Under the pieces are notes generated by a model, which saw only the letters and a list, made by a program, of their open reading frames with translations, was not told where the DNA came from and did no database searches. A stretch of 64,000 bases of DNA from an uncultured Ignavibacteria bacterium (lineage in GTDB: Bacteria > Zixibacteria > MSB-5A5 > SM23-73-2). Shown one piece after another: positions 3,160 to 27,009 of this stretch. Where the stretch lies: the NCBI GenBank assembly GCA_964447175.1, contig CAYURP010000002.1, forward strand, positions 937-64,936. The letters run 5' to 3'. Numbering within the stretch: the first letter of the stretch is position 1; every line of letters starts with the position of its first letter. The position numbers and the translations under genes are program-made.

Positions 3160-3189
3160 TTGACAATTAAGGCTTTGGGATTATATTAT
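3160..3189 (+). promoter_or_regulatory. candidate sigma-70 promoter (TTGACA-N16-TATATT) upstream of the repeat-protein gene
   Basis: ttgaca at 3160-3165 and tatatt at 3182-3187. It lies about 225 nt upstream of the 3415 start, implying a long 5'UTR. Confidence 0.3.
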
Positions 3190-3414: not shown

Positions 3415-4890
3415 ATGAGAGCTCTGAGAATGTTGTTTTTTGTTGGGTTAGCTTTCATCTTTGTTTGCTCATCTTTGATTTATGCTGGTGTGCCCCAGAT
3501 GATTAATTATCAGGGGAAAATAACTACGCCTGCAGGGGCTTTAATAGATACAACTATCGGAATGATATTCACCATTTATGACGACAGCACTTCGGGTAAT
3601 ATCTTTTGGGCAGATACCTTAGGTTCAGTGTCGGTTGAAAAAGGTATGTTCAGCGTCCTGTTAGGGAGTGTGAATCCGATTCCGGACTCTGTTTTCGATG
3701 GAAATATCAGATATTTAGGTATCAAAGTGGGTGGCGATGCGGAGATGACTCCCAGGAAAGTTATTGCCAGCGTGGCTTATGCTTACCGGGCAGGCTCAGC
3801 AGATTTAAGTGCTCATAATCACTGGGGCGAAACCTGGGCTGGTGCAGACACAGGATTGATCCTTACCAGTACCGGCGTATCCAGAGACAACGGATCTGTT
3901 GGAGTCTCCGGTAGAGGCGTTAATTCAGGAGTGCATGGAAGTAGTAATACCGGCAGCGGTGTTTCCGGAAGTAGCCAGGATGGACGCGGGGTCAGTGGTT
4001 CCAGCAATAATGGCACCGGTGTCCAAGGAACTAGCCCCAATGGACAGGGAGTCGAAGGTGCAAGCACCTGGGGCACTGGGGTTTCAGGTACCAGCAACAA
4101 CGGCAATGGAGTGTCTGGTTCCAGCACTAACAGTAATGGAGTGCAAGGGTCCAGCGGTAGCAACACCGGCTCCGGAGTAAGAGGAACCAACAGCTCTCCT
4201 GAGGGAGATGGAGTGAGTGGCCAAGCTGATGGGGGTGACGGCGTTCATGGCGAAAGCAATACTGGTGATGGTGTCTCGGGTGGCAGCAATTCGGGGATTG
4301 GCGTTCACGGTGCAAGTGCTGAGGGCACCGGAGTTTCGGGTGAAAGCGTAAACGGCACAGGTGTTCATGCAAGCTCAGCCTTCGGAACCGCCCTGGTGGT
4401 TGATGGCTCCAGTATATTTAACTGTAACGCTCAGTTCAACTGTAATGTAACAGTCGCAGGAACTCTTGAGGTGAAAAAACTCACAGCATGGGAAATCGAC
4501 CCTATCATCCTTGAGTTATTCAAAGTAGACCCATCTCAGGTTTACCAAAAAGGAGATGTTCTGGTTATCGATCCTGAAAGTGATACTTACAAGCTTTGTG
4601 ATGCTGCAAACGACACAAAGGTTTCCGGTGTTGTCTGGAATGCAGACCCGAACGAGAATGGTGAGGTTCCAGTTGTGATTCTGGGAGCTAAGACTCCATC
4701 CAATACCGTTTACATAAAAGTAGATGTCAGCTATGCTACCATTCAGAGAGGTGATTTGCTAACATCATCTCCAACCCGAGGACATGCTATGAAGGCGACC
4801 GAGCCCAAGCCTGGATCCATAATAGGCAAGGCGCTTGAACCATTTAACTCAGGGAAAGGTCTTATAAAAGTCTTTGTCAACTTGCACTAA
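3415..4890 (+). CDS. secreted repeat protein: conserved N-terminal domain + ~15 Gly-rich decapeptide repeats (G-x-G-V-x-G-x-S-x-x) + C-terminal beta-rich domain
   Basis: 491 aa; signal peptide; RBS aaggag 6 nt upstream. The N-terminal ~110 aa are about 85% identical to the next gene. Residues 159-324 are a decapeptide array. Confidence 0.75.
   Translation: MRALRMLFFVGLAFIFVCSSLIYAGVPQMINYQGKITTPAGALIDTTIGMIFTIYDDSTSGNIFWADTLGSVSVEKGMFSVLLGSVNPIPDSVFDGNIRYLGIKVGGDAEMTPRKVIASVAYAYRAGSADLSAHNHWGETWAGADTGLILTSTGVSRDNGSVGVSGRGVNSGVHGSSNTGSGVSGSSQDGRGVSGSSNNGTGVQGTSPNGQGVEGASTWGTGVSGTSNNGNGVSGSSTNSNGVQGSSGSNTGSGVRGTNSSPEGDGVSGQADGGDGVHGESNTGDGVSGGSNSGIGVHGASAEGTGVSGESVNGTGVHASSAFGTALVVDGSSIFNCNAQFNCNVTVAGTLEVKKLTAWEIDPIILELFKVDPSQVYQKGDVLVIDPESDTYKLCDAANDTKVSGVVWNADPNENGEVPVVILGAKTPSNTVYIKVDVSYATIQRGDLLTSSPTRGHAMKATEPKPGSIIGKALEPFNSGKGLIKVFVNLH
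3889..4386 (+). repeat. intragenic tandem 30-nt (10-aa) Gly/Ser/Val repeat array
   Basis: SGVHGSSNTG / SGVSGSSQDG / RGVSGSSNNG ... about 15 units. It generates several spurious antisense ORFs. Confidence 0.85.
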
Positions 4891-4954
4891 GATACTACTA
4901 ATCAAAATGACCGTATGAGCCTATCAAGTTTAAAAAAACCAAAGGAGTAACATC

Positions 4955-6952
4955 ATGAGATGTAGAAGTGTAGTTTTTTGGATGATAGGAGTTTTAATAC
5001 TCCTACTTTGCTCTATTTCATCTGCTGGCGTGCCACAGATGATAAATTATCAGGGGAAGGTAACTACGCCCTCAGGTGCTTTAATAGATACGACTATCGG
5101 AATGATATTCACCATTTATGATGACAGCACTACGGGTAATACCCTGTGGGCAGATACCTTGAGTTCGGTTGCGGTTCAAAAAGGGATTTTCAACGTTTTG
5201 CTGGGCAGTGGAAATCCCATTCCCGATTCGGTTTTTGATGGCAATATTAGATATTTAGGTACCAAGGTGGGTAGCGATGCGGAGATGACTCCCAGGAAAG
5301 CGATGGTGAGTGTAGCTTATGCCTACCGTGCCGGAACTGCAGACGGAGGTGGCGGAGGAAGCTGTGGCTGGGTAGATGATGGTGTGGTTGTCAGGCTGGA
5401 GACCAACACAGATAATGTGGGAATCGGAACCACCAGTCCGGGAGCGAATCTGGACATCGTTTCCACAAATCCGAATCTTCGTGTGGGCACTTCATCTGGT
5501 TCCCCGGTTATTACTCTAGATAAAGCTTCAGGCTTTTGGGGATATCTGGAATTCAGAGATGCCGGAGCATCCAGGTGGCAAGCAGGCGTAACAAATAGCA
5601 ACGATTATTACATCCTGAACTGGCCATCTTCTAAATATGTTTTCTATGCCAATAGCGCAGGTAATGTGGGCATCGGAACCACCAGTCCCGATGAGAGATT
5701 ACATATTGTTGGAAACATCAAGATGGTTGATGGAAATCAAGCAGCAGGCTATATCTTGACTTCTGATGCAAATGGTGTGGGAACTTGGCAGGCAGCATCG
5801 GGTGGTATTGGTGGTAGTGGTGCAACTAATTATCTCCCGAAATTCACAGGCTCTACCACCCTTGGCAACTCTGTGTTCTACGAAAACGGAGGGAAAATAG
5901 GTCTTGGAACCACCAGCCCGGGTGCAGATCTGGACATTGTTTCCACAAATCCGAATCTCAGGCTGAGCACAACATCTGGTTCTCCAGTCATCACCCTGGA
6001 TAAAGCTTCTGGCTACACATCCATACTCGAATTCCGTGAGGGTGGAGCTTCCAAGTGGCAGGCGGGAGTATCGACTACCAACGATTATTACATCTTAAAC
6101 TGGCCTGCTTCCAAATATGTTTTCTTTGCTAACAGCGCAGGTGACGTTGGTATCGGGACCACCAGTCCAAGTGAGAAACTTACTGTTAATGGTGACATCG
6201 ATATGATACAGGGCCAATCACGGATTCACGGCACAGGAGAGATAAGTTTTGACTGGTCTGCAGGAAGTACCTACGACAATCCCAGTCTTCATGGTTTTGA
6301 ATCTAAAGATGAAGCAGGAACCTGGGGAGATGAAATCAGGATAAATAGTATGAATGATATAATCAACACGGTTGATGCAAATGATAATGACGCAACGTCT
6401 TATTTCAAGGTTCAACATCACTCAACCGGAGATGGTGAGGATCTTTTCTGGGTGCGTTCAAGTGATGGTTATGCATATCACAAAAGCAGGTTGGGAATAG
6501 GCACCACCAGTCCGGGAGTTGATCTGGACATCGTTTCCACAAACCCGAATCTCAGACTGAGCACCACATCTGGTTCCCCGGTTATTACTCTGGATAAAGC
6601 CACAGGCTTTTGGGGGTACCTGGAATTCCGAGATGCTGGATCATCCAAGTGGCAGGCGGGTGTAACAAGTGGTAACGATTATTACATCCTGAACTGGCCT
6701 GCTTCCAGATATGTTTTCTATGCTAATAGTGCTGGTAATGTAGGACTCGGAACCACAAGTCCCACCGGCCCGTTGGACGTTAATGGCAATGATATCCGTA
6801 TTCGCAGCTCCCAAACGCCGGCATCTTCTACAGCAGATGGTTACACAGGAGAGATTGCCTGGGATGCCAGCTACATTTATATTTGCACCTCTGGAGATGG
6901 TCCGGGCGGTGGAACAGATAGCTGGAAAAGAGCAGCTTTAAGTACATGGTAA
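4955..6952 (+). CDS. secreted repeat protein paralog: same N-terminal domain + three ~90-aa repeats (IGTTSP...LDIVSTNPNLR...DYYILNWP) + tail-fibre-like C-terminus
   Basis: 665 aa; signal peptide; RBS aaaggag. The C-terminus GEIAWDASYIYICTSG...SWKRAALSTW resembles the terminal motif of many bacterial and phage tail-fibre-domain proteins. This is recognition from memory, not a search. Confidence 0.75.
   Translation: MRCRSVVFWMIGVLILLLCSISSAGVPQMINYQGKVTTPSGALIDTTIGMIFTIYDDSTTGNTLWADTLSSVAVQKGIFNVLLGSGNPIPDSVFDGNIRYLGTKVGSDAEMTPRKAMVSVAYAYRAGTADGGGGGSCGWVDDGVVVRLETNTDNVGIGTTSPGANLDIVSTNPNLRVGTSSGSPVITLDKASGFWGYLEFRDAGASRWQAGVTNSNDYYILNWPSSKYVFYANSAGNVGIGTTSPDERLHIVGNIKMVDGNQAAGYILTSDANGVGTWQAASGGIGGSGATNYLPKFTGSTTLGNSVFYENGGKIGLGTTSPGADLDIVSTNPNLRLSTTSGSPVITLDKASGYTSILEFREGGASKWQAGVSTTNDYYILNWPASKYVFFANSAGDVGIGTTSPSEKLTVNGDIDMIQGQSRIHGTGEISFDWSAGSTYDNPSLHGFESKDEAGTWGDEIRINSMNDIINTVDANDNDATSYFKVQHHSTGDGEDLFWVRSSDGYAYHKSRLGIGTTSPGVDLDIVSTNPNLRLSTTSGSPVITLDKATGFWGYLEFRDAGSSKWQAGVTSGNDYYILNWPASRYVFYANSAGNVGLGTTSPTGPLDVNGNDIRIRSSQTPASSTADGYTGEIAWDASYIYICTSGDGPGGGTDSWKRAALSTW
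5420..6785 (+). repeat. three long intragenic direct repeats (~270-290 nt each; approx 5420-5700, 5900-6185, 6494-6785)
   Basis: Near-identical DNA stretches, e.g. ccaccagtccgggagcgaatctggacatcgtttccacaaatccgaatct recurring. Protein repeats start at aa 156, 316 and 514. Confidence 0.8.
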
Positions 6953-7070
6953 TGTTAAGTAGGAATGCAACAACTTGTTGTTGCGAATTACAGCAATCCA
7001 TATGGATTGCACTCCAAAACGTCTGGGATAAACCCAGACGCTACAACAAAAAATGGAGGTGTTCAGAAAA

Positions 7071-7525
7071 TGAACAGATTTAATATAATCAAATTGGCGG
7101 TGTTTTTCCTGGCGGTTTCTCTTTTGCTTTGCACAGGATTTTACGCTCAATCTTACTCCCAGAATTTCAAGTTGTTAACTGATGGTCTGGACAGCTTTGG
7201 TGGAAGATCATCATCCACAAATTTCTCCCTGAGAATAGGCTCAGGTGGTCAGCCGGGAGTTATCGGAACTTCCCAGGGTTCAAGTTTTTATGGACTTCAA
7301 GGCTATGTGAACACTGCGGCATTTGTGCACGGGGATGCTAACGCAGACGGGAACACAACCATCGCTGATGTGGTCTATCTGGTAAATTATCTTTTTAAAT
7401 CAGGTCCTGAACCAATCCCTCTGGAGACAGGGGATGTGAATGGCAACAATGAAGCCACTATAGCGGATGCGGTTTATCTGGTGAGCTATCTTTTCAGAGG
7501 AGGCAATCCACCGATTAATCTTTAG
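7071..7525 (+). CDS. small secreted protein with C-terminal type-I dockerin module
   Basis: Start chosen at the internal ATG with RBS ggagg. Signal-like N-terminus MNRFNIIKLAVFFLAVSLLLC. Two dockerin repeats, GDANADGNTTIADVVYLVNYLF and GDVNGNNEATIADAVYLVSYLF. Confidence 0.7.
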
Positions 7526-7611: not shown

Positions 7612-7648
7612 AGCCCACCTTGTCTTCAAGGTGGGCTTAGGTTTTTTT
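7612..7648 (+). terminator. rho-independent terminator (agcccacctt-gtcttc-aaggtgggct + T7)
   Basis: Perfect 10-bp stem followed by ttttttt. It is preceded by a second hairpin at 7549-7574 (cagaacctaact-caa-gttaggttctg). Confidence 0.6.
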
Positions 7649-7879
7649 GGATTGTGACCCTTCAGGTTCACCTGGTTTTCTAAAGAGTTGGAAGTCAAGC
7701 TGAAGCTTGACAATCCAATTCTTCGGGCGAAGACAGAGCTTCGCCCCCATGTTTTCTTACGACCACCTATAAATTCAAAATCTTTTGCTTGACAAAGTGT
7801 TATGATCTACCTATAATTCCTTAGGTTGATCCAGCATGGGTGGCTGTAACTTATTTACTTCTGCGTTTTTGTAAGTTCT

Positions 7880-10630
7880 TTGCAAATGAGAGCAATTTTT
7901 ACATACCTTAACATAGTCTTTCTTCTTCTGTTTTTTGCTATTGTAAATGAAAGGGGGAACCTGCAAGCTCAGGGGTGGGGAACTATCAAAGGCGAGGTTT
8001 CCAACTTTGAAAACGGTGAGCTGCTTTCCGGTGCCAACGTGCTGGTTCAAGGAACCAGGTATGCTACCTCAACAGATGAGAATGGGGTTTTCCTGATTAA
8101 ATTCGTTCCAGCTGGTAAATACACTCTGGAGGTCTCCTTAATAGGATACATTAAGGCACAACAAACGGACGTTGAAATTGAGAAAGACGAAACGGTCAAC
8201 CTTGTATTCCAGCTCAGGCCCACTGAAGTATTATTAAAGGAAAAAATCGAGGTAATTGGAAAGCGCCCCCTTATGGACATAAATGTTCCCGCCACCCGTA
8301 GGGACATAGGAAAAGAGGATCTCGAAAGGTTAATGGTCCATCGGATTGAGGATATTCTCAGCACACAAGCTGGTATTGTGGAGCAGGACCAACAAATCCA
8401 TATCCGGGGTTCCAGAACTTATGAGAGCCTTTATCTGATTGAAGGTATGGCTATAGAGGACCCTTTCTCCACCCGGGGGTTGGGGATTAATCTTTCACCT
8501 TCTGCCATTGAGGAGTTGAGCATCATCACTGGCGGGATTGAGGCTGAATATGGTCAGGTGACCTCAGGCGTAATAGACGTTAAAATAAGGGAGGGCGAGG
8601 ATAAATTGCACGGCTTGCTGACTTACAAAAGAGATCACTTTGGATGGAGCGCTCCCTATAACTTTAATACGGATATAGTTGATTTCAGCCTTTCCGGGCC
8701 CTTTTATAAACGTCTATACTTTTTCTGTAATGCCCAGACTTATCTCAGCGATACTTATTTTTCCTCAACTAACAAACTTTATTCATCCACTTTTGGGGGA
8801 AAGACTTTTGCCCCGCGAGAGGATAATCGTTTTTCCTTGATGGGGAAGCTCAGCTTAAGGTCTAATCCCCTGCGGACTTTGTCCTTCACCTTTGGCAAAT
8901 CAGTGGTGATAAACCAGGATAAAAGTATTTTAACCACCCGAATCAAAACTCCGATTTATAGTTATGGCTACCCCTACGAATATAAAAACATCCTAGAGAG
9001 CTATAACACCTTCACCCATGAGAGCGAGTTTCAGCTAATATCCTGGGAACAGAAAATCAGTTTGAACACATCCTATCAACTTAAACTTTCCCGTTTCTTT
9101 ACCAATCTTCATTCGGATGTGAATGGTAAGCACTGGTCAGAGTATACCATGCCGGAGGATTACCTGCCTCTGGAGATAAGCATAAGCCCGGATAGCACCC
9201 ATTACGTTGTTACTGCCGGGGACGGGTTTTACGATTGGGGGGATGGGGATACTTGGTATGATCATTTTATTGAAAGCTTTGCCTTAAAAGGGGATTTCTC
9301 CCATGTGTTCAGCGAATTCTATCAAATGAAAACGGGGATTTATCATCAATATCAGACAATTCAGCTTCTGGATATATACAAACCCTGGCTGGGTGAGACC
9401 GGCCTGGGCTTGAACTATGACCTGTACCGGGTTTTTGCCAGTGACGGTGCTTTTTTCTGGCAGAATGATTTCAATCTGGGAGATGCCTGGCTTAACCTGG
9501 GGATGAGGTATGATTACTGGTTCCCCGGAAAATATGTGGAAAGGGCGGTGGAGGATACGGATTTGACTTCAGAGGAGATTCGCAGGAAATTTAATCAGGA
9601 TACATTCGAATTTCTGGGATCAAAAGCCAAGGGAGTTCTCTCTCCCCGGGTAGGTTTTTCCACCTCTTTAGGAAAAAACCAGAGGTTTTTCTTTAACTAT
9701 TCCCAGCTTTCCAAAAAACCCAACCCTCAATATGTCTATGCCAAATTGTTTACCTCCACTGAGTCCACCTACCAGCTTTTCGGAAATCCTAATTTGAATC
9801 CGGAGAGGGTGATAACCTATGAGGTGGGTTTGAAATTTCTAATAACCTCACAGGACGCTTTAAGGATAGTGGGTTATTACAGGAACATCTATGATGCCAT
9901 AACAGCTGTGGGGGTGATACCTGAGGATGAGGGTGAAAATCCCTATCTGATGTATTTCAATCTGGATTTTGGTGCCTGCCGGGGAATTGAGCTCCAGTAC
10001 CTGAAAGAGGTGAGCAAAAAGCTCTTTTTGGGAGTGGAGCTTTCACTTTCCAAAGCCTCCGGTGAAAGGTCTTTACCCTCAGACGTTCTGATGGGCATCC
10101 CTGGTCGAGCCTATCAAGCCCTGTATCAGGAATATTATCTGGACTGGGATAAGCCCTGGCAAACCTCCTTTACTCTTAACTATTATGAGGATCTCAAAAG
10201 AAAGATTTTGGGGATAACTTTGCCTGCTAATTGGGAGTTTACCCTTCGGGGATGGGCTCAGGCTGGCAAAAGATACACACCCTTTGAGATGGTTGTTGAA
10301 GATACTGATACCTCTTTTGTTCAGGCGGGGATATTCAATGAGAAGATAGGCAAATATCTAAGCTCGGTGGATCTTAATTTCCAGAAGCATTTTCACTTCA
10401 GGTCATTTAAGTATAGCCTTTTCTGTGAGATAAACAACCTTTTCGATCGAAAAAATCCCACGGTTATAAATCCTTTGACCGGGGATGCATACCAGAAAGG
10501 GGATATCATACCCTATAGCATCGATAATCTGCTTTTGCCGGAATTTGGTTTAGACTTTCCTTTCTGGGAGGATCCAGCCAGGTATTCACCCCCCCGGAAC
10601 GTAAAATTGGGGATTGTATTAAGATGGTGA
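7880..10630 (+). CDS. TonB-dependent-receptor-like outer-membrane protein with N-terminal carboxypeptidase-regulatory-like (CarboxypepD_reg) domain
   Basis: 916 aa; signal peptide. GTIKGEV...GANVLVQG...TDENGVF...GKYTLEVSLIGY is the CarboxypepD_reg signature, followed by a plug-like region and a long beta-barrel ending in ...KLGIVLRW (aromatic C-terminus). Confidence 0.75.
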   Translation: MQMRAIFTYLNIVFLLLFFAIVNERGNLQAQGWGTIKGEVSNFENGELLSGANVLVQGTRYATSTDENGVFLIKFVPAGKYTLEVSLIGYIKAQQTDVEIEKDETVNLVFQLRPTEVLLKEKIEVIGKRPLMDINVPATRRDIGKEDLERLMVHRIEDILSTQAGIVEQDQQIHIRGSRTYESLYLIEGMAIEDPFSTRGLGINLSPSAIEELSIITGGIEAEYGQVTSGVIDVKIREGEDKLHGLLTYKRDHFGWSAPYNFNTDIVDFSLSGPFYKRLYFFCNAQTYLSDTYFSSTNKLYSSTFGGKTFAPREDNRFSLMGKLSLRSNPLRTLSFTFGKSVVINQDKSILTTRIKTPIYSYGYPYEYKNILESYNTFTHESEFQLISWEQKISLNTSYQLKLSRFFTNLHSDVNGKHWSEYTMPEDYLPLEISISPDSTHYVVTAGDGFYDWGDGDTWYDHFIESFALKGDFSHVFSEFYQMKTGIYHQYQTIQLLDIYKPWLGETGLGLNYDLYRVFASDGAFFWQNDFNLGDAWLNLGMRYDYWFPGKYVERAVEDTDLTSEEIRRKFNQDTFEFLGSKAKGVLSPRVGFSTSLGKNQRFFFNYSQLSKKPNPQYVYAKLFTSTESTYQLFGNPNLNPERVITYEVGLKFLITSQDALRIVGYYRNIYDAITAVGVIPEDEGENPYLMYFNLDFGACRGIELQYLKEVSKKLFLGVELSLSKASGERSLPSDVLMGIPGRAYQALYQEYYLDWDKPWQTSFTLNYYEDLKRKILGITLPANWEFTLRGWAQAGKRYTPFEMVVEDTDTSFVQAGIFNEKIGKYLSSVDLNFQKHFHFRSFKYSLFCEINNLFDRKNPTVINPLTGDAYQKGDIIPYSIDNLLLPEFGLDFPFWEDPARYSPPRNVKLGIVLRW

Positions 10631-12366: not shown

Positions 12367-13788
12367 ATGAAAAGCAAGACTATCATCACGATGGCGATAT
12401 CCTTGATTTTATTTGCTTTTTTAGCAACAACCTGGGCCGGAACGGATCAGGATCTGCAAGAGATAAGAAAAGCAATTAAGGAGAAAGGGGCAAAATGGGA
12501 GGCAGGCGATAACTGGGTTTTTCGTCTTTCCAAAGAGGAGAGGAAAAATCTAATGGGGGACCTCCCGGTAAAATATCTTCCCGCAAAGATCCCACAACCT
12601 TTATCTGGACTTTCGTTGCCCGACAGTTTTGACTGGCGAAGCTACAATGGATACAACTGGACCACCTCCATCAAGAATCAACTAACTTGTGGGAATTGCT
12701 GGGCTCATGCCTCCTGCGGTGCATTAGAGACGGTGGTTAAAATCACTTTAAATGAACCCAATCTATCAAATACATCCATCGACCTCTCAGAGTTGTATAT
12801 GACTTCTTGCAGTGGCAGGGGATGTGAACTGGGCTGGGATCAATCCAGCAGCCTTCAGTTTATAAAGGTTAATGGTGTCCCGGATCAAGTATGCTTCCCG
12901 GGTAATCTCCCTCCAGCTCCCTGTGGAGATACCTGTTCTAATAAATACAATAGATCTATATTCATAGAGGATTGGTATTATTATGGATCTGGGGTGTCTG
13001 TGGATTCAAATGATGTTAATGCCATAAAGGATAGGATATATAATCATGGTCCGGTTACGGTTCATTTTCTCGTTTACGAAGATTTTGGCGGTTATCAATC
13101 GGGGGTTTACGAGCACACTTGGGGTGATCCTGAAGACTGGCATGCGGTGAGCATGGTGGGATGGAATGATGTGGATAGCTGCTGGATCTGTAAAAATAGC
13201 TGGGGGCCAGATTGGGGTGATGACGGCTGGTTCAGGATAAGAATGATTCATGCTGGAGTTCATATAGAAGAGGAATGCTGGTATATGACGGTGGATTCCG
13301 CCTCCATCCCTCGGATTACAGTTACCTCACCTGTTGACGGAGATAAGTGGATGATGGGAACCCAGCATGACATCAAATGGATATCACCTTATTTTAGTGG
13401 ATATGTTAGAATCGATTATTCCACCAATGGCGGTTCGGACTGGGATAATATTACTGAGAGCACCTTAGACGATGGCAGCTTCAACTGGGTCAATATCCCG
13501 GACATCCCTTCGAGTAACTGTAAGCTTAAGATCTCCGATGCCAGCGATGGGATTCCCTGGGTCTTAAGTCGGGGAGCATTTTTTATCGTAACTTTGGGAG
13601 ATGTAAATGCTGATGGGGGTGTGGGCATAGCAGATGTGGTATATTTGGTGAACTATGTCTTGCGTAGCGGACCTGAGCCTTATATTATGGAAACCGGCGA
13701 TGTAAACTGCGACTGGTTAGTGAATATGAATGATATAGTCTTTCTGGTCAACTATATTTTAAGAAGTGGTCCTAAGCCGGAATGTTAA
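12367..13788 (+). CDS. papain-family (C1) cysteine protease with C-terminal dockerin module
   Basis: 473 aa; signal peptide; strong RBS ggaggag. Active-site Cys motif QLTCGNCWAHASCGALE, His region HAVSMVGWND and Asn/Trp region NSWGPDWGDDGWFRI. The C-terminus has two dockerin repeats, GDVNADGGVGIADVVYLVNYVL and GDVNCDWLVNMNDIVFLVNYIL. Confidence 0.85.
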   Translation: MKSKTIITMAISLILFAFLATTWAGTDQDLQEIRKAIKEKGAKWEAGDNWVFRLSKEERKNLMGDLPVKYLPAKIPQPLSGLSLPDSFDWRSYNGYNWTTSIKNQLTCGNCWAHASCGALETVVKITLNEPNLSNTSIDLSELYMTSCSGRGCELGWDQSSSLQFIKVNGVPDQVCFPGNLPPAPCGDTCSNKYNRSIFIEDWYYYGSGVSVDSNDVNAIKDRIYNHGPVTVHFLVYEDFGGYQSGVYEHTWGDPEDWHAVSMVGWNDVDSCWICKNSWGPDWGDDGWFRIRMIHAGVHIEEECWYMTVDSASIPRITVTSPVDGDKWMMGTQHDIKWISPYFSGYVRIDYSTNGGSDWDNITESTLDDGSFNWVNIPDIPSSNCKLKISDASDGIPWVLSRGAFFIVTLGDVNADGGVGIADVVYLVNYVLRSGPEPYIMETGDVNCDWLVNMNDIVFLVNYILRSGPKPEC

Positions 13789-17980: not shown

Positions 17981-20653
17981 TTGTTAATCCAAAAGAGATA
18001 CAGAGAAATTTTCATCTTTGCTTTTATAATGATTTTCTGGGCGTCCTGGGTGTGGGGCGGAACCTCAGGCAAGATATCCGGTACCCTGAGAGATAAAATC
18101 ACAGGAGAACCCTTGCCCGGTGCAACCATTATGATTTTGGGAACCAATATCGGTACCTCAACGGATGAAGATGGTGATTATTTTCTGATAAATATCCCCC
18201 CGGGCAACTATACTATTCAAGCAACTTTAATCGGATATGAGCCCGTTGTTCAAAAAGAGGTTAAAGTCCTTTTGGATCTGACCACTCCGGTGGATTTCAA
18301 ATTGATGTCCTCTCCCATTGAACTGGTCGAGGGTATAACGGTGATAGCTGAACGTCCGATGATTCAGAAGGATTTAACCTATTCCGGGAACATAGTGACC
18401 CGGGAGGAGTTAAATAACCTTCCTAATGCAGTAAACCTGCAGCAGGTGGTCTCCAATATGGCTGGAACGGTGGTGGACGAAGCTGGTTTGTTACATGTCC
18501 GGGGAGGCCGGGATGGAACGGTCAGCTATTTTCTGGACGGGGTAAATGTTCAGGATCCTTTTGTGGGGCAAGCTGGCACCCGGATTACCCCGGATGCCAT
18601 AGAGGAGCTGGATGTCACTACCGGAGGCTTCACTGCTGAGTATGGGGAGGCGCTCTCAGGAGTGGTAAGCGCAGTTACAAAGCGAGGAACCAACCTCTAT
18701 CAAGGAAAGATCAAAGCCTACGATGGCGCCACTCGCTCCTACGATGTTCACAACGGAAGTTTCAAAGATCTTGCCCGAAACGATAACCAATCGGTGATCT
18801 TAAACTTGGGAGGTCCTTTGACCTTCACCAACACTGATAGAGCCACGTTCTTTTTAACCAGTGAATATCTGAGAGACAAGGGCTACCTGCCTCATAACCA
18901 GGTGGAACTTTATTCCCATACTGGAAAGATAACCTTAAAACCCACCAATGATATCATAATCCTTCTTACCGGAAACTATTATCAGAGGGATCGACAGCGA
19001 TACCAACACCGGGACGGGAATAACTTCTCTTATGATTTCAACCTGGAGGGTCTGGGTAACTACCAAAATAAAGCCTATCATTATGGAGCTAAAATTACTT
19101 ATCCCGCTTCCCAAAACACCATATACACTATTAAGTTCAACCATTTCTTCACTGAAACCAAGCTTGCGCCAGAGCATCTCTTTGACCTGTACTGGAATCA
19201 GTGGCCTGGTTATTCGGTGGACTCCAATGGGGTTTACAATGGGACCATTCATACTCAAAACTACAACGTGGATCCAGAGTATTTTAACACCGGTTTCACT
19301 AAGGCTCCAGATTACTTCCCGGTCTATCATTATCGCAGGACCCAGTATAACAGCTTTGGTCTGGATTTGATCTCCCAGATAGATAAATATAATCAGATAA
19401 AATTAGGTTGGGAATACAGAGCCAACAGGCTCAAATGGGATGACAAACAATTCTTCAATATCAGACCGTACGGGGAACGCTATGTGGTCAATCCTGCGTA
19501 TGCAGCTCTGTATGTGCAGGATAAAATCGAGTTCCGGGAGATAATTTTAAATGCAGGCTTAAGATTGGATTATATGGATGCGGACATCGATTTCTGGAAT
19601 GATCCGGTGAAAAAAAATGAAAAAATACACACCAAGTCCAAAACTCAACTTTCACCTCGTCTGGGAATTTCGCATCCCATTTCTGATCTAACGGTTATTC
19701 ATTTCAACTACGGATATTACTTCCAGGTACCTCAGTATATGTATATGTTCACCAATTTGCAGGCTGATTTAAGCACCGGATATCCTCTGGTGGGCAATCC
19801 CAATATGGAGGTGGAAAAAACGGTTGCCTATGAGATGGGAATAAGCCATATGCTTAATCCAAACATCAGATTGAAGTTAACTGCCTATTATAAGGATCTG
19901 GGCAATCTGGCTACCACCCGAGAGGTGGTTTATGCTGGTGGTTCCTACACTCAGTACACAAATGCTGATTATGGATCAGTTAAAGGATTTGATTTGGTCC
20001 TGACTAAAATTGCCAGTGACCATCTCTCCGGAGGCATAAATTATACCTATTCCATAGCTAAGGGGAATGCTTCTTCAGTAACCGAGGGTTACTATGATTA
20101 TTTCACACAGGGAACGGAAGCTCCGGTCTGGCCGGTAAAAGAATATCCCCTCTCCTTTGATCAAAGGCACACTCTCTCGGCTGACATTGATTATCGAGTT
20201 CCCCGGGACTGGAAGGGTAAGTTTTTAGGTCTGACTATGCCCGGCGCCTGGGGAGTTAATGTGTTAACTCAATACGGAAGCGGATTACCTTATACCAAAA
20301 CCGATGACCAGGGGCATAGAGTTGGAATGCTAAACGAGGGTAGACTGCCCCCCACCTACCGGGTGGACCTGAAATTCAACAAGGATTTCTATTTCCTCAA
20401 GGATAGTGATCTTCATCTCACATTTTTCACCGAGGTGGAGAATCTATTTGATAGAAGTAATATCATTGATGTTTACCCTAATACCGGAAAACCGGATGAT
20501 GATGGAAGATATTATGAGCTGACTTCTGATCCGGATGGAGACGGACCTTTAACCCCTGAGGATGTGAATTGCTATTATAGGCTGTTGGCTAAGGATCCTC
20601 AGAACTACGACTCTCCCAGAAGGATCAGATGGGGATTTGAATTTGTGTTTTAA
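17981..20653 (+). CDS. TonB-dependent-receptor-like outer-membrane protein with CarboxypepD_reg N-domain (paralog of 7880-10630)
   Basis: 890 aa. TTG start with RBS ggagggtg. GKISGTLRDKITGEPLPGATIMILGTNIGTSTDEDGDYFLINIPPGNYTIQATLIGY is CarboxypepD_reg. Plug and barrel follow, ending ...RWGFEFVF. Confidence 0.75.
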   Translation: MLIQKRYREIFIFAFIMIFWASWVWGGTSGKISGTLRDKITGEPLPGATIMILGTNIGTSTDEDGDYFLINIPPGNYTIQATLIGYEPVVQKEVKVLLDLTTPVDFKLMSSPIELVEGITVIAERPMIQKDLTYSGNIVTREELNNLPNAVNLQQVVSNMAGTVVDEAGLLHVRGGRDGTVSYFLDGVNVQDPFVGQAGTRITPDAIEELDVTTGGFTAEYGEALSGVVSAVTKRGTNLYQGKIKAYDGATRSYDVHNGSFKDLARNDNQSVILNLGGPLTFTNTDRATFFLTSEYLRDKGYLPHNQVELYSHTGKITLKPTNDIIILLTGNYYQRDRQRYQHRDGNNFSYDFNLEGLGNYQNKAYHYGAKITYPASQNTIYTIKFNHFFTETKLAPEHLFDLYWNQWPGYSVDSNGVYNGTIHTQNYNVDPEYFNTGFTKAPDYFPVYHYRRTQYNSFGLDLISQIDKYNQIKLGWEYRANRLKWDDKQFFNIRPYGERYVVNPAYAALYVQDKIEFREIILNAGLRLDYMDADIDFWNDPVKKNEKIHTKSKTQLSPRLGISHPISDLTVIHFNYGYYFQVPQYMYMFTNLQADLSTGYPLVGNPNMEVEKTVAYEMGISHMLNPNIRLKLTAYYKDLGNLATTREVVYAGGSYTQYTNADYGSVKGFDLVLTKIASDHLSGGINYTYSIAKGNASSVTEGYYDYFTQGTEAPVWPVKEYPLSFDQRHTLSADIDYRVPRDWKGKFLGLTMPGAWGVNVLTQYGSGLPYTKTDDQGHRVGMLNEGRLPPTYRVDLKFNKDFYFLKDSDLHLTFFTEVENLFDRSNIIDVYPNTGKPDDDGRYYELTSDPDGDGPLTPEDVNCYYRLLAKDPQNYDSPRRIRWGFEFVF

Positions 20654-20687: not shown

Positions 20688-23357
20688 ATGTTTCAAAGAA
20701 AATCTATTGGCTTCTGGATTTATTCCTGGGGTTTTTTGATCTCCCTAATTCTTTTTAGCAGCAGCGGATTGTCCAAAACTACCTCTTCTTTGATTCCTCC
20801 GTCTGAGATTCAGGACCAGATCATTCAGAACAAGGGTAATATCGCAACCACAATTCAGAATTGGGGTCAGATCGGAGGACAGAGCCATCTGGGCAAACCC
20901 TCAGGGGAGTGGCCTAAGGGATCGGGTCATAACTACCTGGCAGAGATCAAATACTGGATGGGTGCCATCAAGCTCAGCGGCGATACGGTGGTAGCTAATA
21001 CCGAAGACGATTTCATGCCTATTGCTATGCCTCTCTTTGGAGAGGAGAGCTACAAGATCCGTCTTTCCACCGACCCCTCAACCTACGATTATGATTCATA
21101 TGATACGGTGGGTTTGGGAATTGGCAAACCCTCCTATGGGTGGAAAGTATGGGATTTGGAGAAGGACTCCTGGGAGTATAACAAGGTCTGGAACTTATCC
21201 TCGGGTCAATTTGAAGGAGCTGGTCCAATTTCCTTACAGGAAAGCCACTACCGGTTTAATGATGCTAATAGCGGCATAAGTGTTTTGGATTTGGAGATGA
21301 CTCAGACTATTTATCAGTGGAACTACAGCTACAACCAGGATTTTCTATTCGTGGTATTAGAGATCAAAAACAACAGTTCCGATAATTACTCTGATTTTGC
21401 TTTTGGTCTTTACTGCGATTTCGATGTGGGGGGGTATCATCCACCTACCGGGGAAAACGGGAGATTGGGTGATCTGGTGGAATTTGATTCTGCTTTGAAT
21501 TTGGCTTGGACCTATGATCAGGATGGTTATGATCCTGGTTGGGGACCCCTGGTAAAGACCGGAATGATGGGGACCAAATATATAGAGACGCCGGACAATA
21601 TCGGAATGACTGCCTTCAGAACCGGCCAATGGGAATATCTGCCGGATGATGATCCGGGGAAATATGAATATATTAATAGCCAGCAATTCGATCAGAGTTT
21701 ACCCCCCACAGACCAATACTATATTCAATGCACTCGGGGGATAGATTTGAGGTCCGGCAAAACAGTACGAGTGGTTTTTGCGCTTATTGCTGGTTATGAT
21801 GAGAAGGATTTAAAGGATAAAGCCAATATGGCTCAAACGGTATATGAGAACTATTTTATCGGTCCGGAACCACCCAAGCCATCTAATCTGGTCGCTACGC
21901 CGGGGAATGGTTTGGTAAAGCTCCTGTGGGACGATGTTTCTGAAAATTCGGTGGATCCTCTAAGCGGGATTGTAGATTTTAGGGGTTATAAGATCTATAG
22001 AAGCACAGATATGGGTTTGACCTGGGGAGATTTGGTGAAAAATCCAGATGGGAGCCTGGGTCCGGATTACATACCCATTGCAATGTTTCAGAAGGAAAAT
22101 GAGGAGGACATCCTACCGCATACCTATATCGACAGAAACCTGACCAATGGGATAGAATGCTGGTATACGGTGGTGGCTTTTGACGGGGGTGACACCACGG
22201 TTCCCATAGAGCCTTTACAGAATGCTTATGGTCGACCGGGTGAAGATCCCAACTGCCAGTTCGCCATACCTCGTACTGATCCTGCTGGATATTATCCCAT
22301 AGACGTAACTGTGGATCACAACTATTATGGATTGGAGAGCAAAAGCGATGGATGGGTAGTGCCAATGGTTTTCGATCAGGGCGCTTTGACGGGACACGAT
22401 TATAAAGTTACCTTTTCCGAGGATTATCTATCTACCTACTGGCATTTGATTGATATTTCCAACAGTGATACGGTTTTAAAAGCACAGACCGAACAGTCCG
22501 GTGATACGGTGAAATACCAGGTGGTGGATGGAATCCAGGTGATCGTCACCAACGGTCTTAAGGATCCCAGCTACTACTACCAGACTGAGTTTGCCACCGG
22601 ATCAGATACCACCTTACATATGGGATATATGTATGGGTCGATGGGAGAGACTTTTGGATTTCCTACGGGCGGAGACATCCATTTTCGCTCCACCTACGAA
22701 TTCAGATTCACCGCGGAAGGCTCTCAGGGGTTCAGCTTTCACGATGGTGTTACTCCCGTTGATCTCCCCTTTGAAGTCTGGAACGTAACCTTGGAGCAAA
22801 AGGTTTTTGCTGAGATTTATGATCGAGGAGATGGGGTATGGGACCCGGATAAGAAAGATTATATAATTATCGTTAACTATCCGTATGATGGAGAACCACA
22901 TCCCGAAGCTTTTCCCTTTTATGACGTTTGGTTCTTCAGATTCGACACCACGGATACCCAATATTCAACAGGCGATGTTTTCAGAGTTGGGGGGGCATCA
23001 CTCAATTCCCCGGATGATGAATTTTTCTTCAGTTCTCCAGGGATAGACGACAGACAAGCAAGAAGGGAACTGGCTAATGTTAAGGTTGTACCTAATCCCT
23101 ATATCGCCCGTGCCGATTGGGAAACCACAGACGGGATGAGGAAGATTCAATTCACCCATCTGCCCGATATCTGCACCATAAGAATTTACACCTTAGCCGG
23201 GGATCTAGTTCAGACCCTTATACATGATAATGGTTCTGGATCAGAAGATTGGGATCTTTTATCCGAAAATCAACAGGGAATAAGCTCAGGAGTCTATTTC
23301 TATCACGTTTCATCAAAATATGGTGAAAAGATCGGCAAATTCGCTATTATCAAATAA
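20688..23357 (+). CDS. large secreted protein with FN3-like domain and T9SS type-A C-terminal sorting domain (CTD)
   Basis: 889 aa; signal peptide. The C-terminal ~85 aa, VKVVPNPYIAR...CTIRIYTLAGDLVQTL...ISSGVYFYHVSSKYGEKIGKFAIIK, match the Por_Secre_tail pattern (VYPNP...IxIYdxxGxLV...SGvYFy...KfxiiK). Confidence 0.65.
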   Translation: MFQRKSIGFWIYSWGFLISLILFSSSGLSKTTSSLIPPSEIQDQIIQNKGNIATTIQNWGQIGGQSHLGKPSGEWPKGSGHNYLAEIKYWMGAIKLSGDTVVANTEDDFMPIAMPLFGEESYKIRLSTDPSTYDYDSYDTVGLGIGKPSYGWKVWDLEKDSWEYNKVWNLSSGQFEGAGPISLQESHYRFNDANSGISVLDLEMTQTIYQWNYSYNQDFLFVVLEIKNNSSDNYSDFAFGLYCDFDVGGYHPPTGENGRLGDLVEFDSALNLAWTYDQDGYDPGWGPLVKTGMMGTKYIETPDNIGMTAFRTGQWEYLPDDDPGKYEYINSQQFDQSLPPTDQYYIQCTRGIDLRSGKTVRVVFALIAGYDEKDLKDKANMAQTVYENYFIGPEPPKPSNLVATPGNGLVKLLWDDVSENSVDPLSGIVDFRGYKIYRSTDMGLTWGDLVKNPDGSLGPDYIPIAMFQKENEEDILPHTYIDRNLTNGIECWYTVVAFDGGDTTVPIEPLQNAYGRPGEDPNCQFAIPRTDPAGYYPIDVTVDHNYYGLESKSDGWVVPMVFDQGALTGHDYKVTFSEDYLSTYWHLIDISNSDTVLKAQTEQSGDTVKYQVVDGIQVIVTNGLKDPSYYYQTEFATGSDTTLHMGYMYGSMGETFGFPTGGDIHFRSTYEFRFTAEGSQGFSFHDGVTPVDLPFEVWNVTLEQKVFAEIYDRGDGVWDPDKKDYIIIVNYPYDGEPHPEAFPFYDVWFFRFDTTDTQYSTGDVFRVGGASLNSPDDEFFFSSPGIDDRQARRELANVKVVPNPYIARADWETTDGMRKIQFTHLPDICTIRIYTLAGDLVQTLIHDNGSGSEDWDLLSENQQGISSGVYFYHVSSKYGEKIGKFAIIK

Positions 23358-23378: not shown

Positions 23379-24389
23379 ATGGCTAAGAGAATTCTACTAA
23401 CTTTAATCATTCTGACTCTGGTGCTGAGCCACTCCGGCGTGGCAGAGGAATTCTCCAAGGTGGGGAGTGTGGGAGCGCAGTTTTTGAAAATAGGCGTGGG
23501 TGCAAAGTATGTGGGAATGGGTGAAGCATCGGTGGCTTGCGTGAATGATGCCTATGCTATGTACTGGAACCCAGCCGGTCTGACTCAGCTTTCCCAGAAT
23601 AATCTACGCTTCACCAATGTGGATTGGATAGATGATGTCCAGCTGAATTATGTGTCTTTTGGTAAACCCTGGGGCAGCTCCTCTGCCTGGGGAATCAGTA
23701 TGACCGTTCTGACCATGGGGGATATGGAAGTTACCACGGTGCAGGAACCAGAAGGGACTGGCGAGAAGTTCTCCGCCTCGGATTACTCGATAGCTTTAGG
23801 TTATGCCAGAAAACTTACAGATAGATTTTCTCTGGGACTGAGTTTCAAATACCTGTGGGAGAGGATCTCAGAGGAATCTGCATCCGGATTTGCTTTTGAT
23901 TTCGGGACTCTGTTTTTCACCGGCATTCAGAATTTAAGGATGGGTATGAACATCTCCAATTTGGGCCCGGAGATGAAATTAGATGGACCGGAGCTGGATG
24001 TGTTTTATACCCCCTATCCCGAGAACACCAACTATGATGGGGTGAAAAGCAAGCTGGCTGTGGAACCCTATGATCTGCCGCTAACTTTTAGAGTGGGATT
24101 GGCATATGATCTTTACCCATCGGCTGATTCCAGGCTCACTCTATCCAGCGAAGCCAAACATCCCAATGATAACCTGCAGCAGGTGAGCTTTGGCGGAGAA
24201 TGGGTTTGGAAGGAAATGGTGTCCTTGAGAACCGGATATAAGCTGAACTATGAGGAAGAGGGTTTAACCTTAGGGGGTGGATTGAAGCTGAAAACCGGAG
24301 AAAGAACCACCCTGGAGCTGAACTATGCCTGGGCTGATTTCAACCGGCTACAGAGCGTTCATCGCTTTTCTGTGGGTTTTGACTTTTAA
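23379..24389 (+). CDS. PorV/PorQ-family-like outer-membrane beta-barrel (T9SS shuttle-like)
   Basis: 336 aa; signal peptide. The N-terminal GAQFLKIGVGAKYVGMGEASVACVNDAYAMYWNPAGL motif (GxxxLGMG...ayaiYWNPAGL) is characteristic of the PorV/PorQ/UPF0164 barrel family. It has alternating amphipathic strands and a C-terminal F. It is adjacent to a CTD-bearing cargo gene. Confidence 0.55.
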   Translation: MAKRILLTLIILTLVLSHSGVAEEFSKVGSVGAQFLKIGVGAKYVGMGEASVACVNDAYAMYWNPAGLTQLSQNNLRFTNVDWIDDVQLNYVSFGKPWGSSSAWGISMTVLTMGDMEVTTVQEPEGTGEKFSASDYSIALGYARKLTDRFSLGLSFKYLWERISEESASGFAFDFGTLFFTGIQNLRMGMNISNLGPEMKLDGPELDVFYTPYPENTNYDGVKSKLAVEPYDLPLTFRVGLAYDLYPSADSRLTLSSEAKHPNDNLQQVSFGGEWVWKEMVSLRTGYKLNYEEEGLTLGGGLKLKTGERTTLELNYAWADFNRLQSVHRFSVGFDF

Positions 24390-26142: not shown

Positions 26143-26994
26143 ATGAGCTTCTCATATTTCAGGATAGCTCATGAACACCCCTATAGGGGTTTCACCCTTC
26201 TGGAGTTAGCCATAGTCATGGCCATTTTCGGATTATTGACAGCATCCGCTGTAGGACTTTATGGGGCCATGTCCAAACGCAATCGAGAAGTGAAAACCAA
26301 AGACGAAATGGAAAACATAAGAGAGGCAGTGCTGGGCTATTATCGGAACTATCTGTTTTTACCCGCTCCGGAAGCCGGGTATGTTGTTCCCATTGACGAG
26401 CTGGATCTTCCACCCACAGCCCAGAAGGATGAGATCTATAAAGGAAAGTATTATGCTTACATAGCGACCAATGCCGGGTCACCATTCTCCGAGCTGTTAG
26501 TGGACGGACAGTCCATAGGAGAAACAGCTATAGTTTTGATATCCAGCGGAGCCAACTTGAGATTTGAGGAGGAAAATTCCGATCTCGGCGACGGGGAATA
26601 TTCTCAGGAGGGAACCACTGCAGATTTCGATGATATACTTATATGCCTTTCTGGCAACGAGCTGGGGTCCTCCATTGCTTGGAGAAGGGAGATCGAGGAG
26701 GAAGTGGCAGTGTTGAATCGGGCTGCAGAGATATTGGCGAAAAACGATGATGATGGAGATGGGTTTGTAGATGAGGATTCCACCGACCCTTCAGGCAACT
26801 CAGATAGCTACACTGACTGGGATCTGGTGAGTGGAACAGGGTCTTTAGTCAATGCCGGGCTTTTGTGGAATCCCGATCACATAGTGGACCCATGGGGAAC
26901 TGAATATTGTTGGGATTTTTTTAATCATGAATTTTACTCAGCCGGCTCCAACAGGACCGATGAAGGCTGTGGTGGGGATGATATCTGCCCTTAA
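26143..26994 (+). CDS. larger prepilin-type protein (minor pilin or pseudopilin)
   Basis: 283 aa. ...YRG|FTLLELAIVMAIFGLLTASAV prepilin motif, then an Asp/Glu-rich region (DDDGDGFVDEDSTDPSGNSD) resembling a Ca-binding loop. Confidence 0.65.
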   Translation: MSFSYFRIAHEHPYRGFTLLELAIVMAIFGLLTASAVGLYGAMSKRNREVKTKDEMENIREAVLGYYRNYLFLPAPEAGYVVPIDELDLPPTAQKDEIYKGKYYAYIATNAGSPFSELLVDGQSIGETAIVLISSGANLRFEEENSDLGDGEYSQEGTTADFDDILICLSGNELGSSIAWRREIEEEVAVLNRAAEILAKNDDDGDGFVDEDSTDPSGNSDSYTDWDLVSGTGSLVNAGLLWNPDHIVDPWGTEYCWDFFNHEFYSAGSNRTDEGCGGDDICP

Positions 26995-27009
26995 AAGGAG
27001 CAAAATCAA

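Follow-up and report, generated by a model that had tools for sequence, protein, structure and literature searches.

Mosaic adhesive trimers (MATs) are chimeric fibers of Bdellovibrio, described in 2024 by Caulton et al. (PMC10769870) as the prey-recognition toolkit of this bacterial predator. There are 21 MAT genes in B. bacteriovorus HD100, the C-terminal tips of Bdellovibrio MATs were shown to bind ligands, and the way in which the MAT N-domain is held on the cell was explicitly left unexplained (PMC10769870). Here, two tandem genes, designated A and B, are compared with these fibers. They are found in a 64,000-nucleotide stretch of DNA (the window) from an uncultured Zixibacteria-type bacterium (assembly GCA_964447175.1, contig CAYURP010000002.1, positions 937–64,936). 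Bioinformatics analysis demonstrated that A and B share an N-terminal module (N-module) related to the MAT N-domain and carry different phage-like bodies, that this module heads a very large family of mosaic proteins, and that the small dockerin gene found downstream of A and B (the partner gene) is syntenic with members of the family. Taken as a whole, it is probable that A and B are surface fibers of the MAT superfamily, with the N-module as the anchor and phage-derived bodies; the partner protein is proposed as a possible adaptor.

The N-terminal module shared by A and B

The two genes and the parts of their products considered first are as follows.

3415–4890, plus strand: gene A, MAT-like chimeric fiber protein of 491 aa (open reading frame (ORF) with an AGGAG Shine–Dalgarno sequence upstream)
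4955–6952, plus strand: gene B, MAT-like chimeric fiber protein of 665 aa (ORF with an AGGAG Shine–Dalgarno sequence)
3415–3486, plus strand: predicted Sec-type signal peptide of A, residues 1–24 (hydrophobic N-terminus; helix at residues 2–19 in the AlphaFold2 (AF2) model; leader ending in A-x-VP in the family alignment)
3487–3804, plus strand: N-module of A, residues 25–130 (beta-sandwich of 6–7 strands, AF2 pLDDT 83; match to NF053851 with the signal peptide removed, E-value 2.6 × 10−7)
5027–5344, plus strand: N-module of B, residues 25–130 (84% identical to that of A; match to NF053851 with the signal peptide removed, E-value 1.4 × 10−6)

Genes A and B are separated by 64 bp, and the exact proteins are held by NCBI/JGI without a name. 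BLASTP aligned residues 1–130 of A and B without gaps (73% identity; E-value, 3 × 10−61) and revealed no significant similarity beyond residue 130. Within residues 24–128, 88 out of 105 positions are identical (84%, and 83% at the DNA level), in agreement with the value of about 85% given for this region in the initial annotation. When calculated per 30-nt block, the nucleotide identity ranges from 0.7 to 0.93 at codons ~21–130 and is 0.33, i.e., random, past codon 130. The divergence of the shared modules (dS 0.81, dN 0.075, dN/dS 0.09) points to an old duplication under purifying selection rather than to recent gene conversion.

The N-module is directly preceded by a leader of ~24 hydrophobic residues, which ends in A-G before VPQ and is variable across the family alignment. 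It is thus likely that A and B are exported by the Sec pathway as paralogous chimeric fibers. Lipoprotein anchoring was considered and rejected, since the Cys residues of the two leaders have no lipobox around them and lack conservation across the family. Export of A and B by the type IX secretion system (T9SS) was rejected as well: the C-terminal sorting domain (Por_Secre_tail/TIGR04183) is absent, and the PorV match of B is sub-threshold noise with 0 qualifying stretches.

No Pfam family was matched by A or B at E ≤ 1. The sole NCBIfam match of both proteins is NF053851 (Bdello_MAT_N), with E-values of 1.9 × 10−6 for A and 3.6 × 10−6 for B (27–28 bits, full length), and this match persists after removal of the signal peptide. 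Eight N-modules from other phyla match the same model with E-values down to 10−12; NF053851 is the top family in all 10 modules compared, including those of A and B, and is matched by 99 out of 99 diverse full-length relatives (best E-value, 5 × 10−20). Judged by these profile comparisons, the N-module is truly, though only partially, homologous to the MAT N-domain.

For the family search, a profile of 18 N-modules was compared with 1.84 billion representative proteins (clusters at 50% identity). This search yielded 80,306 clusters at E ≤ 10−3, 42,761 at E ≤ 10−10 and 5,201 at E ≤ 10−30, most of which originate from metagenome-assembled genomes (MAGs) and metagenomes; in nearly all of the matches, the module occupies residues ~5–140 of a protein of 140–1,500 aa. 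The module had been called widespread and uncharacterized on first reading, and while these counts bear out the former, the latter needs correction, as a curated NCBIfam model and the 2024 paper cover the Bdellovibrio subfamily. The N-module is not enzymatic, and it is carried by far more genes than the two copies, A and B, to which tblastn confined it in the window.

A scan of GTDB species genomes gave 139 confirmed N-module stretches, most of them in Zixibacteria MAGs, the nearest relative being 76–83% identical, so that the window probably stems from a Zixibacteria-type organism. Further bins with the N-module are labeled as Ignavibacteria, the FCB group, Armatimonadota, Planctomycetota, Cloacimonadota, Elusimicrobiales, Bipolaricaulia and others. 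A closed chromosome of 2.56 Mb from a related organism (CP070839.1) harbors at least 10 N-module genes. Tandem runs are common and reach a length of six genes in locus L055 (1552–7966), where short N-module genes (271–370 aa) follow each other uninterrupted and the partner gene was not detected downstream. In three independent assemblies (L001:8001–8821, also L002 and L003), a 147-aa ORF consisting of the N-module only shares its last 4 bp with the beginning of a 126-aa ORF; this may be a frameshifted or truncated fiber gene. In four large proteins (P0027, P0028, P0040 and P0078; up to 1,542 aa), three internal copies of the N-module alternate with a ~60-aa segment, and Ig-like and beta-propeller-like regions come after them.

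The C-terminal regions of the family form one mosaic network. Among the 99 relatives, Peptidase_S74 was found in 13 and the phage Collar domain in 5, together with beta-helix regions, and three family members match LbR_Ice_bind, the antifreeze beta-roll model of Pfam. The cassette arrangement proposed in the initial annotation, with a constant N-domain combined with variable fiber and repeat domains for surface or adhesin diversification, is supported and matches the published concept of MAT chimeric fibers, to whose N-terminal model (NF053851) the N-module is homologous.

The N-module is the conserved part (dN/dS 0.09 between A and B), whereas the C-termini are shuffled; in adhesins and phage fibers, such a pattern marks the end used for attachment and not the one that binds the target. 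This argues against a reversed polarity, in which the N-module would be the ligand-binding end, e.g., a carbohydrate-binding beta-sandwich, and the C-terminal parts would be spacers or anchors. Moreover, S74, Collar and gp12-like modules, known for receptor binding or chaperone function and distal in phage fibers, are found among the C-termini, and it is the C-terminal tips that bind ligands in Bdellovibrio (PMC10769870); a reversed fiber is thus improbable. In the orientation that we favor, the N-module would form the constant, cell-proximal end and, by analogy with MAT fibers and phage tail fibers, hold the fiber on a conserved element of the cell surface, while the exchangeable phage-derived bodies would supply reach and specificity. 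Its role as an anchoring or secretion domain is inferred here, as it is in the literature.

Phage-related bodies and C-terminal domains

Downstream of the N-module, the following parts of A and B were delimited.

3874–4389, plus strand: decapeptide array G-x-G-V-x-G-x-S-x-x of A, ~16 units, residues ~154–325 (in-phase repeat count)
4498–4887, plus strand: C-terminal beta-tulip domain of A, residues ~362–491, similar to the gp12-type autochaperone
4498–4521, plus strand: D362-P-I-I-L-E367-L-F of A, putative counterpart of the autocleavage boundary of phi29 gp12 (between S691 and D692, in D692-F-A-E695-Y-F)
5393–5737, plus strand: fiber module 1 of B, residues 147–261 (IGTTSP-bounded; three-way alignment)
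5870–6214, plus strand: fiber module 2 of B, residues 306–420 (three-way alignment)
6464–6808, plus strand: fiber module 3 of B, residues 504–618 (three-way alignment)
6809–6949, plus strand: C-terminal tail of B, residues 619–665, ending in WKRAALSTW (matches to phrog_37350 at residues 515–647 and phrog_21017 at residues 620–648, both of unknown function)

The decapeptide array noticed in the initial annotation was recovered as a chain of 16 in-phase units, in which the G-V dipeptides are spaced by 10 residues (twice by 12) from residue 172 to residue 316. Owing to the divergence of the repeat DNA, Tandem Repeats Finder recovered no more than 2.4 copies of a 30-nt period. The array is presumed to be the fiber shaft. 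Several ORFs of 80–120 aa overlap the repeats of A (3819–4372, both strands) in other frames or on the opposite strand and are by-products of the Gly/Ser/Val-rich repeat. A rise in G+C content over positions 4001–6000 (0.48 versus 0.41–0.44) reflects the amino acid composition of the fiber genes.

The array is followed by a separate globular domain of ~130 aa (residues ~360–491), which had been missed on first reading. Its fold resembles that of the released fragment of phi29 gp12 (3gqh), and gp12 is also the top PDB sequence match of the tip-family profile, although the sequence similarity is marginal (E-value, 0.0064). In the profile alignment, the consensus D-l-A-E-e-F of the tip family falls on DFAEYF of gp12, the start of the released fragment 3gqh; in the pre-mature crystal form of gp12 (3suc), a Q is found where the motif has E. 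At least 494 stretches of the tip domain were found on IMG/VR contigs. It ends no more than five residues from the end of the ORF in 83 out of 83 IMG/VR cases, and the proteins that carry it include PHROG tail fiber families. The N-module and the tip of A were modeled as separate domains, and the composite alignment of full-length A was discarded since it misplaced tip homologs on the N-module. The idea that shaft and tip always occur together was partly true at most, as three or more in-phase G-V-x-G units were found in 14 out of 73 tip homologs (a count limited by length).

By analogy, the terminus of A is read as a phage-type trimerization/chaperone module, i.e., a functional analog of S74 and not necessarily a receptor-binding tip. 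Most likely, the beta-tulip domain nucleates trimerization of the decapeptide shaft that it caps, after which it may be cleaved off near the bond between I361 and D362. If so, it would represent a second class of intramolecular chaperone modules in cellular fibers, beside S74.

Three repeated modules had also been noticed in B. Their number stands, whereas their length is ~105–115 aa rather than ~90 aa; they share 69–70% pairwise identity, with a mean column identity of 82% in the three-way alignment, and are bounded by IGTTSP motifs. Residues 307–374 match part of a MAT protein, namely the beta-helix region of Bd3182 (PDB 8ojn; E-value, 0.0024), and the span of residues 393–551 matches the PHROG tail fiber families phrog_9942 (E-value, 2.9 × 10−13) and phrog_18345. 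B would thus consist, behind its N-module, of three tail-fiber-like modules and a short C-terminal cap.

The C-terminal modules would drive trimer folding, and it is the presence of such modules that indirectly supports, by analogy, a trimeric state of A and B. Alternatively, these proteins could be monomeric secreted beta-solenoids, such as ice-binding or matrix proteins. The three family members that match LbR_Ice_bind and the resemblance of the Gly/Ser/Thr/Asn-rich array of A to solenoid repeats would fit such proteins. However, the gp12-type autochaperone of A, the S74 domains of its relatives and the tail fiber modules are trimer-specific folding devices in characterized homologs (PMC10769870), which makes the monomeric alternative very improbable.

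The phage character of the bodies also raises the question of whether A and B are tail fiber genes of a prophage, a tailocin or a contractile injection system, with the N-module as a baseplate-attachment domain. The PHROG tail fiber matches of B, the abundance of the A tip at the C-termini of viral tail fiber proteins, and the common N-terminus with swapped tips, which is generally typical of phage fibers, are consistent with this, as is a single IMG/VR contig (L084) with a gene combining N-module and tip. On the other hand, A and B have Sec signal peptides, which virion fibers lack, at least 10 dispersed copies of the family are found per small genome, and the N-module neither gave a match in the IMG/VR pattern scan nor had a structural relative in BFVD at E ≤ 0.001. 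The neighbors of A and B are housekeeping-type genes (murI, amidase, smpB, and genes for a TonB-dependent receptor and an NHL protein), with no phage structural, lysis or integration genes among them. The gene on the viral-classed contig (L084:5107–6363) has a lipoprotein-type leader (LIGSGC) followed by the N-module and a gp12-like tip, and is without a PHROG match. It is the sole N-module among the viral loci examined, and the contig is probably cellular DNA or a miscalled provirus boundary. A prophage or tailocin origin of A and B is thus largely refuted and extremely improbable. There are no tRNA or tmRNA genes at the borders of the locus; smpB adjoins it and ssrA does not.

The downstream dockerin gene

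Three further features belong to the same locus.

7070–7525, plus strand: partner gene, 151 aa (signal/transmembrane segment, ~55-aa core at 7148–7318, type I dockerin at 7328–7492)
3160–3189, plus strand: sigma-70-like promoter candidate 5′ of A (11/12 match to TTGACA, 16–18 nt spacer, TATATT/TATTAT; consensus match alone)
7612–7637, plus strand: intrinsic-terminator-like hairpin (11-bp stem with 7 GC pairs, T-run)

The candidate promoter and the strong terminator-like hairpin flank A, B and the partner gene, and the next perfect-consensus promoter (7789–7817) lies ahead of a TonB-dependent receptor gene. The three genes thus appear to be co-transcribed.

The gene call of NCBI is identical to the partner gene as given here. 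The core of its product, in which an S-x-N-[FY]-x-L...G-Q motif occurs twice, is without a match in Pfam or the PDB, while the dockerin matches PF00404 (Dockerin_1) with 32.3 bits against a cutoff of 22.9 (residues 122–176 of the ORF as scanned). Partner homologs were found directly 3′ of N-module genes in dozens of loci, the similarity running through the non-dockerin core. With a hidden Markov model of the core only, 41 out of 70 fiber gene runs with adequate downstream sequence were found to be followed by a core-bearing gene on the same strand (−200 to +600 bp), the gaps being mostly below 120 bp, and when all loci are considered, 45 out of 50 ORFs with the core occupy this position behind fiber genes. 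Because the first loci had been chosen through the fiber gene, the synteny was re-tested from the partner side: in a partner-anchored scan of metagenomes, an N-module gene lies upstream in 15 of the 16 loci with at least 1.6 kb of upstream sequence. Among the partner-anchored loci with ample sequence upstream, L173 (5839–6381) alone lacks an N-module gene and has an unrelated 799-aa ORF in that place. A dockerin is present in all partner variants, and the longer ones (L016, L018, L019, L021 and L025) add a T9SS sorting domain, which the partner in the window does not have. The distances among N-modules are correlated with those among the adjacent partner cores (Mantel test, r 0.445; 0 of 2000 permutations). 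This result is not relied on here, since it could be due either to common phylogeny or to duplication of the unit.

This linkage makes the partner protein a concrete candidate for an anchoring partner, which may act as an adaptor that connects the N-module with a surface scaffold bearing cohesins or anchored by T9SS. The two could be joined by strand complementation, in which the near-invariant mature N-terminus (VPxMINYQG...) would pair with the small beta-rich core of the partner; this core weakly resembles a donor-strand-accepting tip pilin. The tip-pilin model PamT (NF058579) of the candidate phyla radiation is matched weakly by 13 out of 27 partner cores (best E-value, 1.4 × 10−4; ~20 bits, where the cutoff is 240). 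The partner in the window gives no match to it. PamT is a small exported single-domain protein and predicted donor-strand acceptor, and a tail-fiber-like gene is conserved next to pam operons (bioRxiv 10.64898/2026.03.03.709456). At the sequence level, the resemblance of the partner cores to PamT is only a lead. We consider physical contact between N-module and partner possible, if somewhat doubtful, and it is rather unlikely that the partner protein is the surface receptor or adaptor of the MAT-type N-domain.

A serious rival to the adaptor idea accepts the MAT-like fibers as real and holds that the dockerin protein is not their anchor. It would be an assembly factor or chaperone, or unrelated cohesin–dockerin cargo, and the N-module would bind, e.g., lipopolysaccharide, an outer-membrane protein or pili. 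Small assembly-chaperone genes are generally known to follow phage fiber genes often, dockerins are common on many unrelated proteins in these genomes, the link between partner core and N-module is one of gene order, and the fraction of fiber gene runs without a partner (see below) fits this rival too. However, the synteny is tight and directional and holds when anchored on either gene, and a cytoplasmic chaperone is a poor fit to a protein that is exported and bears modules for surface attachment (a dockerin, joined in some lineages by a T9SS sorting domain). The correlation of distances speaks against the rival as well, subject to its confounding by phylogeny. Overall, a non-anchoring partner is somewhat unlikely.

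No cohesin was identified among the window ORFs scanned. At 12367–13788 (plus strand), the window encodes a C1 peptidase of the papain family that carries a type I dockerin, and large dockerin-bearing proteins are numerous in related loci (e.g., L015, L038 and L053); this abundance of dockerins suggests an extensive cohesin–dockerin surface system in Zixibacteria-type genomes. In Armatimonadota (L045:7766–10840 and L067:7343–9472), the fiber genes are followed by a large protein with CHAP, LGFP, OmpL47-type barrel and Big_13 domains that holds the same motif (S-x-N-Y-x-L...G-Q...G-Y-W) internally, and the conserved linked element may thus be the motif rather than the dockerin architecture.

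Several observations weigh against the interpretation of A and B as anchored MAT-type fibers. The NF053851 scores of A and B are 27–31 bits against a curated cutoff of 60, and the alignment covers model positions ~13–77 of 162; for these reasons, A and B are regarded as superfamily relatives and not as members of the curated Bdellovibrio subfamily. Giant proteins such as P0027 and P0028 hold three internal copies of the N-module, which is therefore an autonomous fold not confined to an N-terminal anchoring position. The predicted structure of the A shaft is not confident, with a pLDDT of 40–77 at residues 310–360, the D-to-E spacing in the gp12-like motif of A is longer by two residues, and a loose pattern of this motif fits about half of the tip homologs and no more. 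Approximately 40% of the fiber gene runs, including the six-gene run of L055 and most loci outside Zixibacteria, are without a detectable partner, which is thus not a universal requirement. Finally, the Zixibacteria are not known to be predators.

Farther along the plus strand, the window contains two CarboxypepD_reg–Plug–TonB-dependent receptor genes and two further ORFs (7880–10630, 17981–20653, 20688–23357 and 23379–24389); the second receptor gene is followed by an 889-aa ORF without a Pfam match and by a gene for a PorV-like (T9SS) outer-membrane protein. An N-module gene also adjoins a TonB-dependent receptor gene in L001/L002. At 26143–28377 (plus strand), a type IV pilus or type II secretion system-like cluster starts with genes for a protein with a prepilin-type N-methylation motif and a PilN-domain protein. 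An interplay of MAT adhesion with type IV pili was speculated on in the MAT paper (PMC10769870).

Comparison with known systems

The cassette principle and the family itself are known from the 2024 paper and the NCBIfam model. In the literature on MATs, no description was found of the scale of the family outside predators, of a gp12-type terminus on a cellular fiber, or of a conserved dockerin partner. The N-module family is without a Pfam model, and the N-module, the A tip and the partner core are well delimited and merit family models. As shown here, proteins headed by the MAT N-domain make up a very large family. It is found in uncultured lineages that are not predators, many copies can be present in one genome, and the phage-derived bodies are shuffled. 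Chimeric fibers may therefore be a general bacterial device for surface diversification and not a predator specialty. If the partner were indeed an adaptor, Zixibacteria and related bacteria of the FCB group would mount interchangeable phage-derived fibers via a dockerin–cohesin or T9SS-anchored adaptor, which would be an undescribed mode of adhesive fiber attachment to the diderm surface and would hint at where to seek the anchor in Bdellovibrio.

Among surface attachment devices, the cellulosome-type cohesin–dockerin system (PF00404) is comparable in that the partner likewise ends in a type I dockerin. Unlike cellulosome-type dockerin proteins, the partner has no enzyme attached; instead, its dockerin is joined to a novel core of 55 aa and is genetically linked to fiber genes. 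In the comparison with PamT, the match takes in the leader region, and the other pam genes are not present.

With phage tail fibers, A and B share the constant N-terminus, the shuffled distal modules, the IGTTSP-type junctions and, in the case of B, the PHROG matches. Unlike tail fibers, they are, as predicted from their leaders, Sec-exported cellular proteins, and their N-module was not detected in viral collections apart from the L084 gene mentioned above. In phi29 gp12, the preneck appendage or tailspike (3gqh, 3suc, 6qz9), the part upstream of the autochaperone is an enzymatic right-handed beta-helix, whereas that of A is a decapeptide array; gp12 undergoes autocleavage and ATP-dependent release, for which A is a candidate only. 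In endosialidase-type fibers with the S74 domain (PF13884), the C-terminal domain nucleates trimer folding and is then removed, which is the function by which the A tip may be considered analogous. A and B themselves are without PF13884, which is found in 13 out of 99 N-module relatives.

The described MATs differ from A and B in their host, which is of Zixibacteria type here, and in their size (~1,000 aa, compared with 491 and 665 aa). The tips described for Bdellovibrio do not include a gp12-type terminus such as that of A, and a conserved downstream dockerin gene, as found here, has not been reported for MATs. In MATs as in A and B, a signal peptide is followed by a conserved N-terminal domain without a PDB homolog and by a long phage-like fiber body, and one of the B modules matches the beta-helix of the MAT protein Bd3182 (8ojn). 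Paralogs such as A and B share their N-region and then diverge into swapped tips, the C-termini of the whole family being likewise mosaic. Finally, many copies are found per genome, here as judged by the related chromosome CP070839.1 (at least 10), and the termini of the N-module family fall into S74 and non-S74 types, the same dichotomy as described for the MATs of Bdellovibrio.

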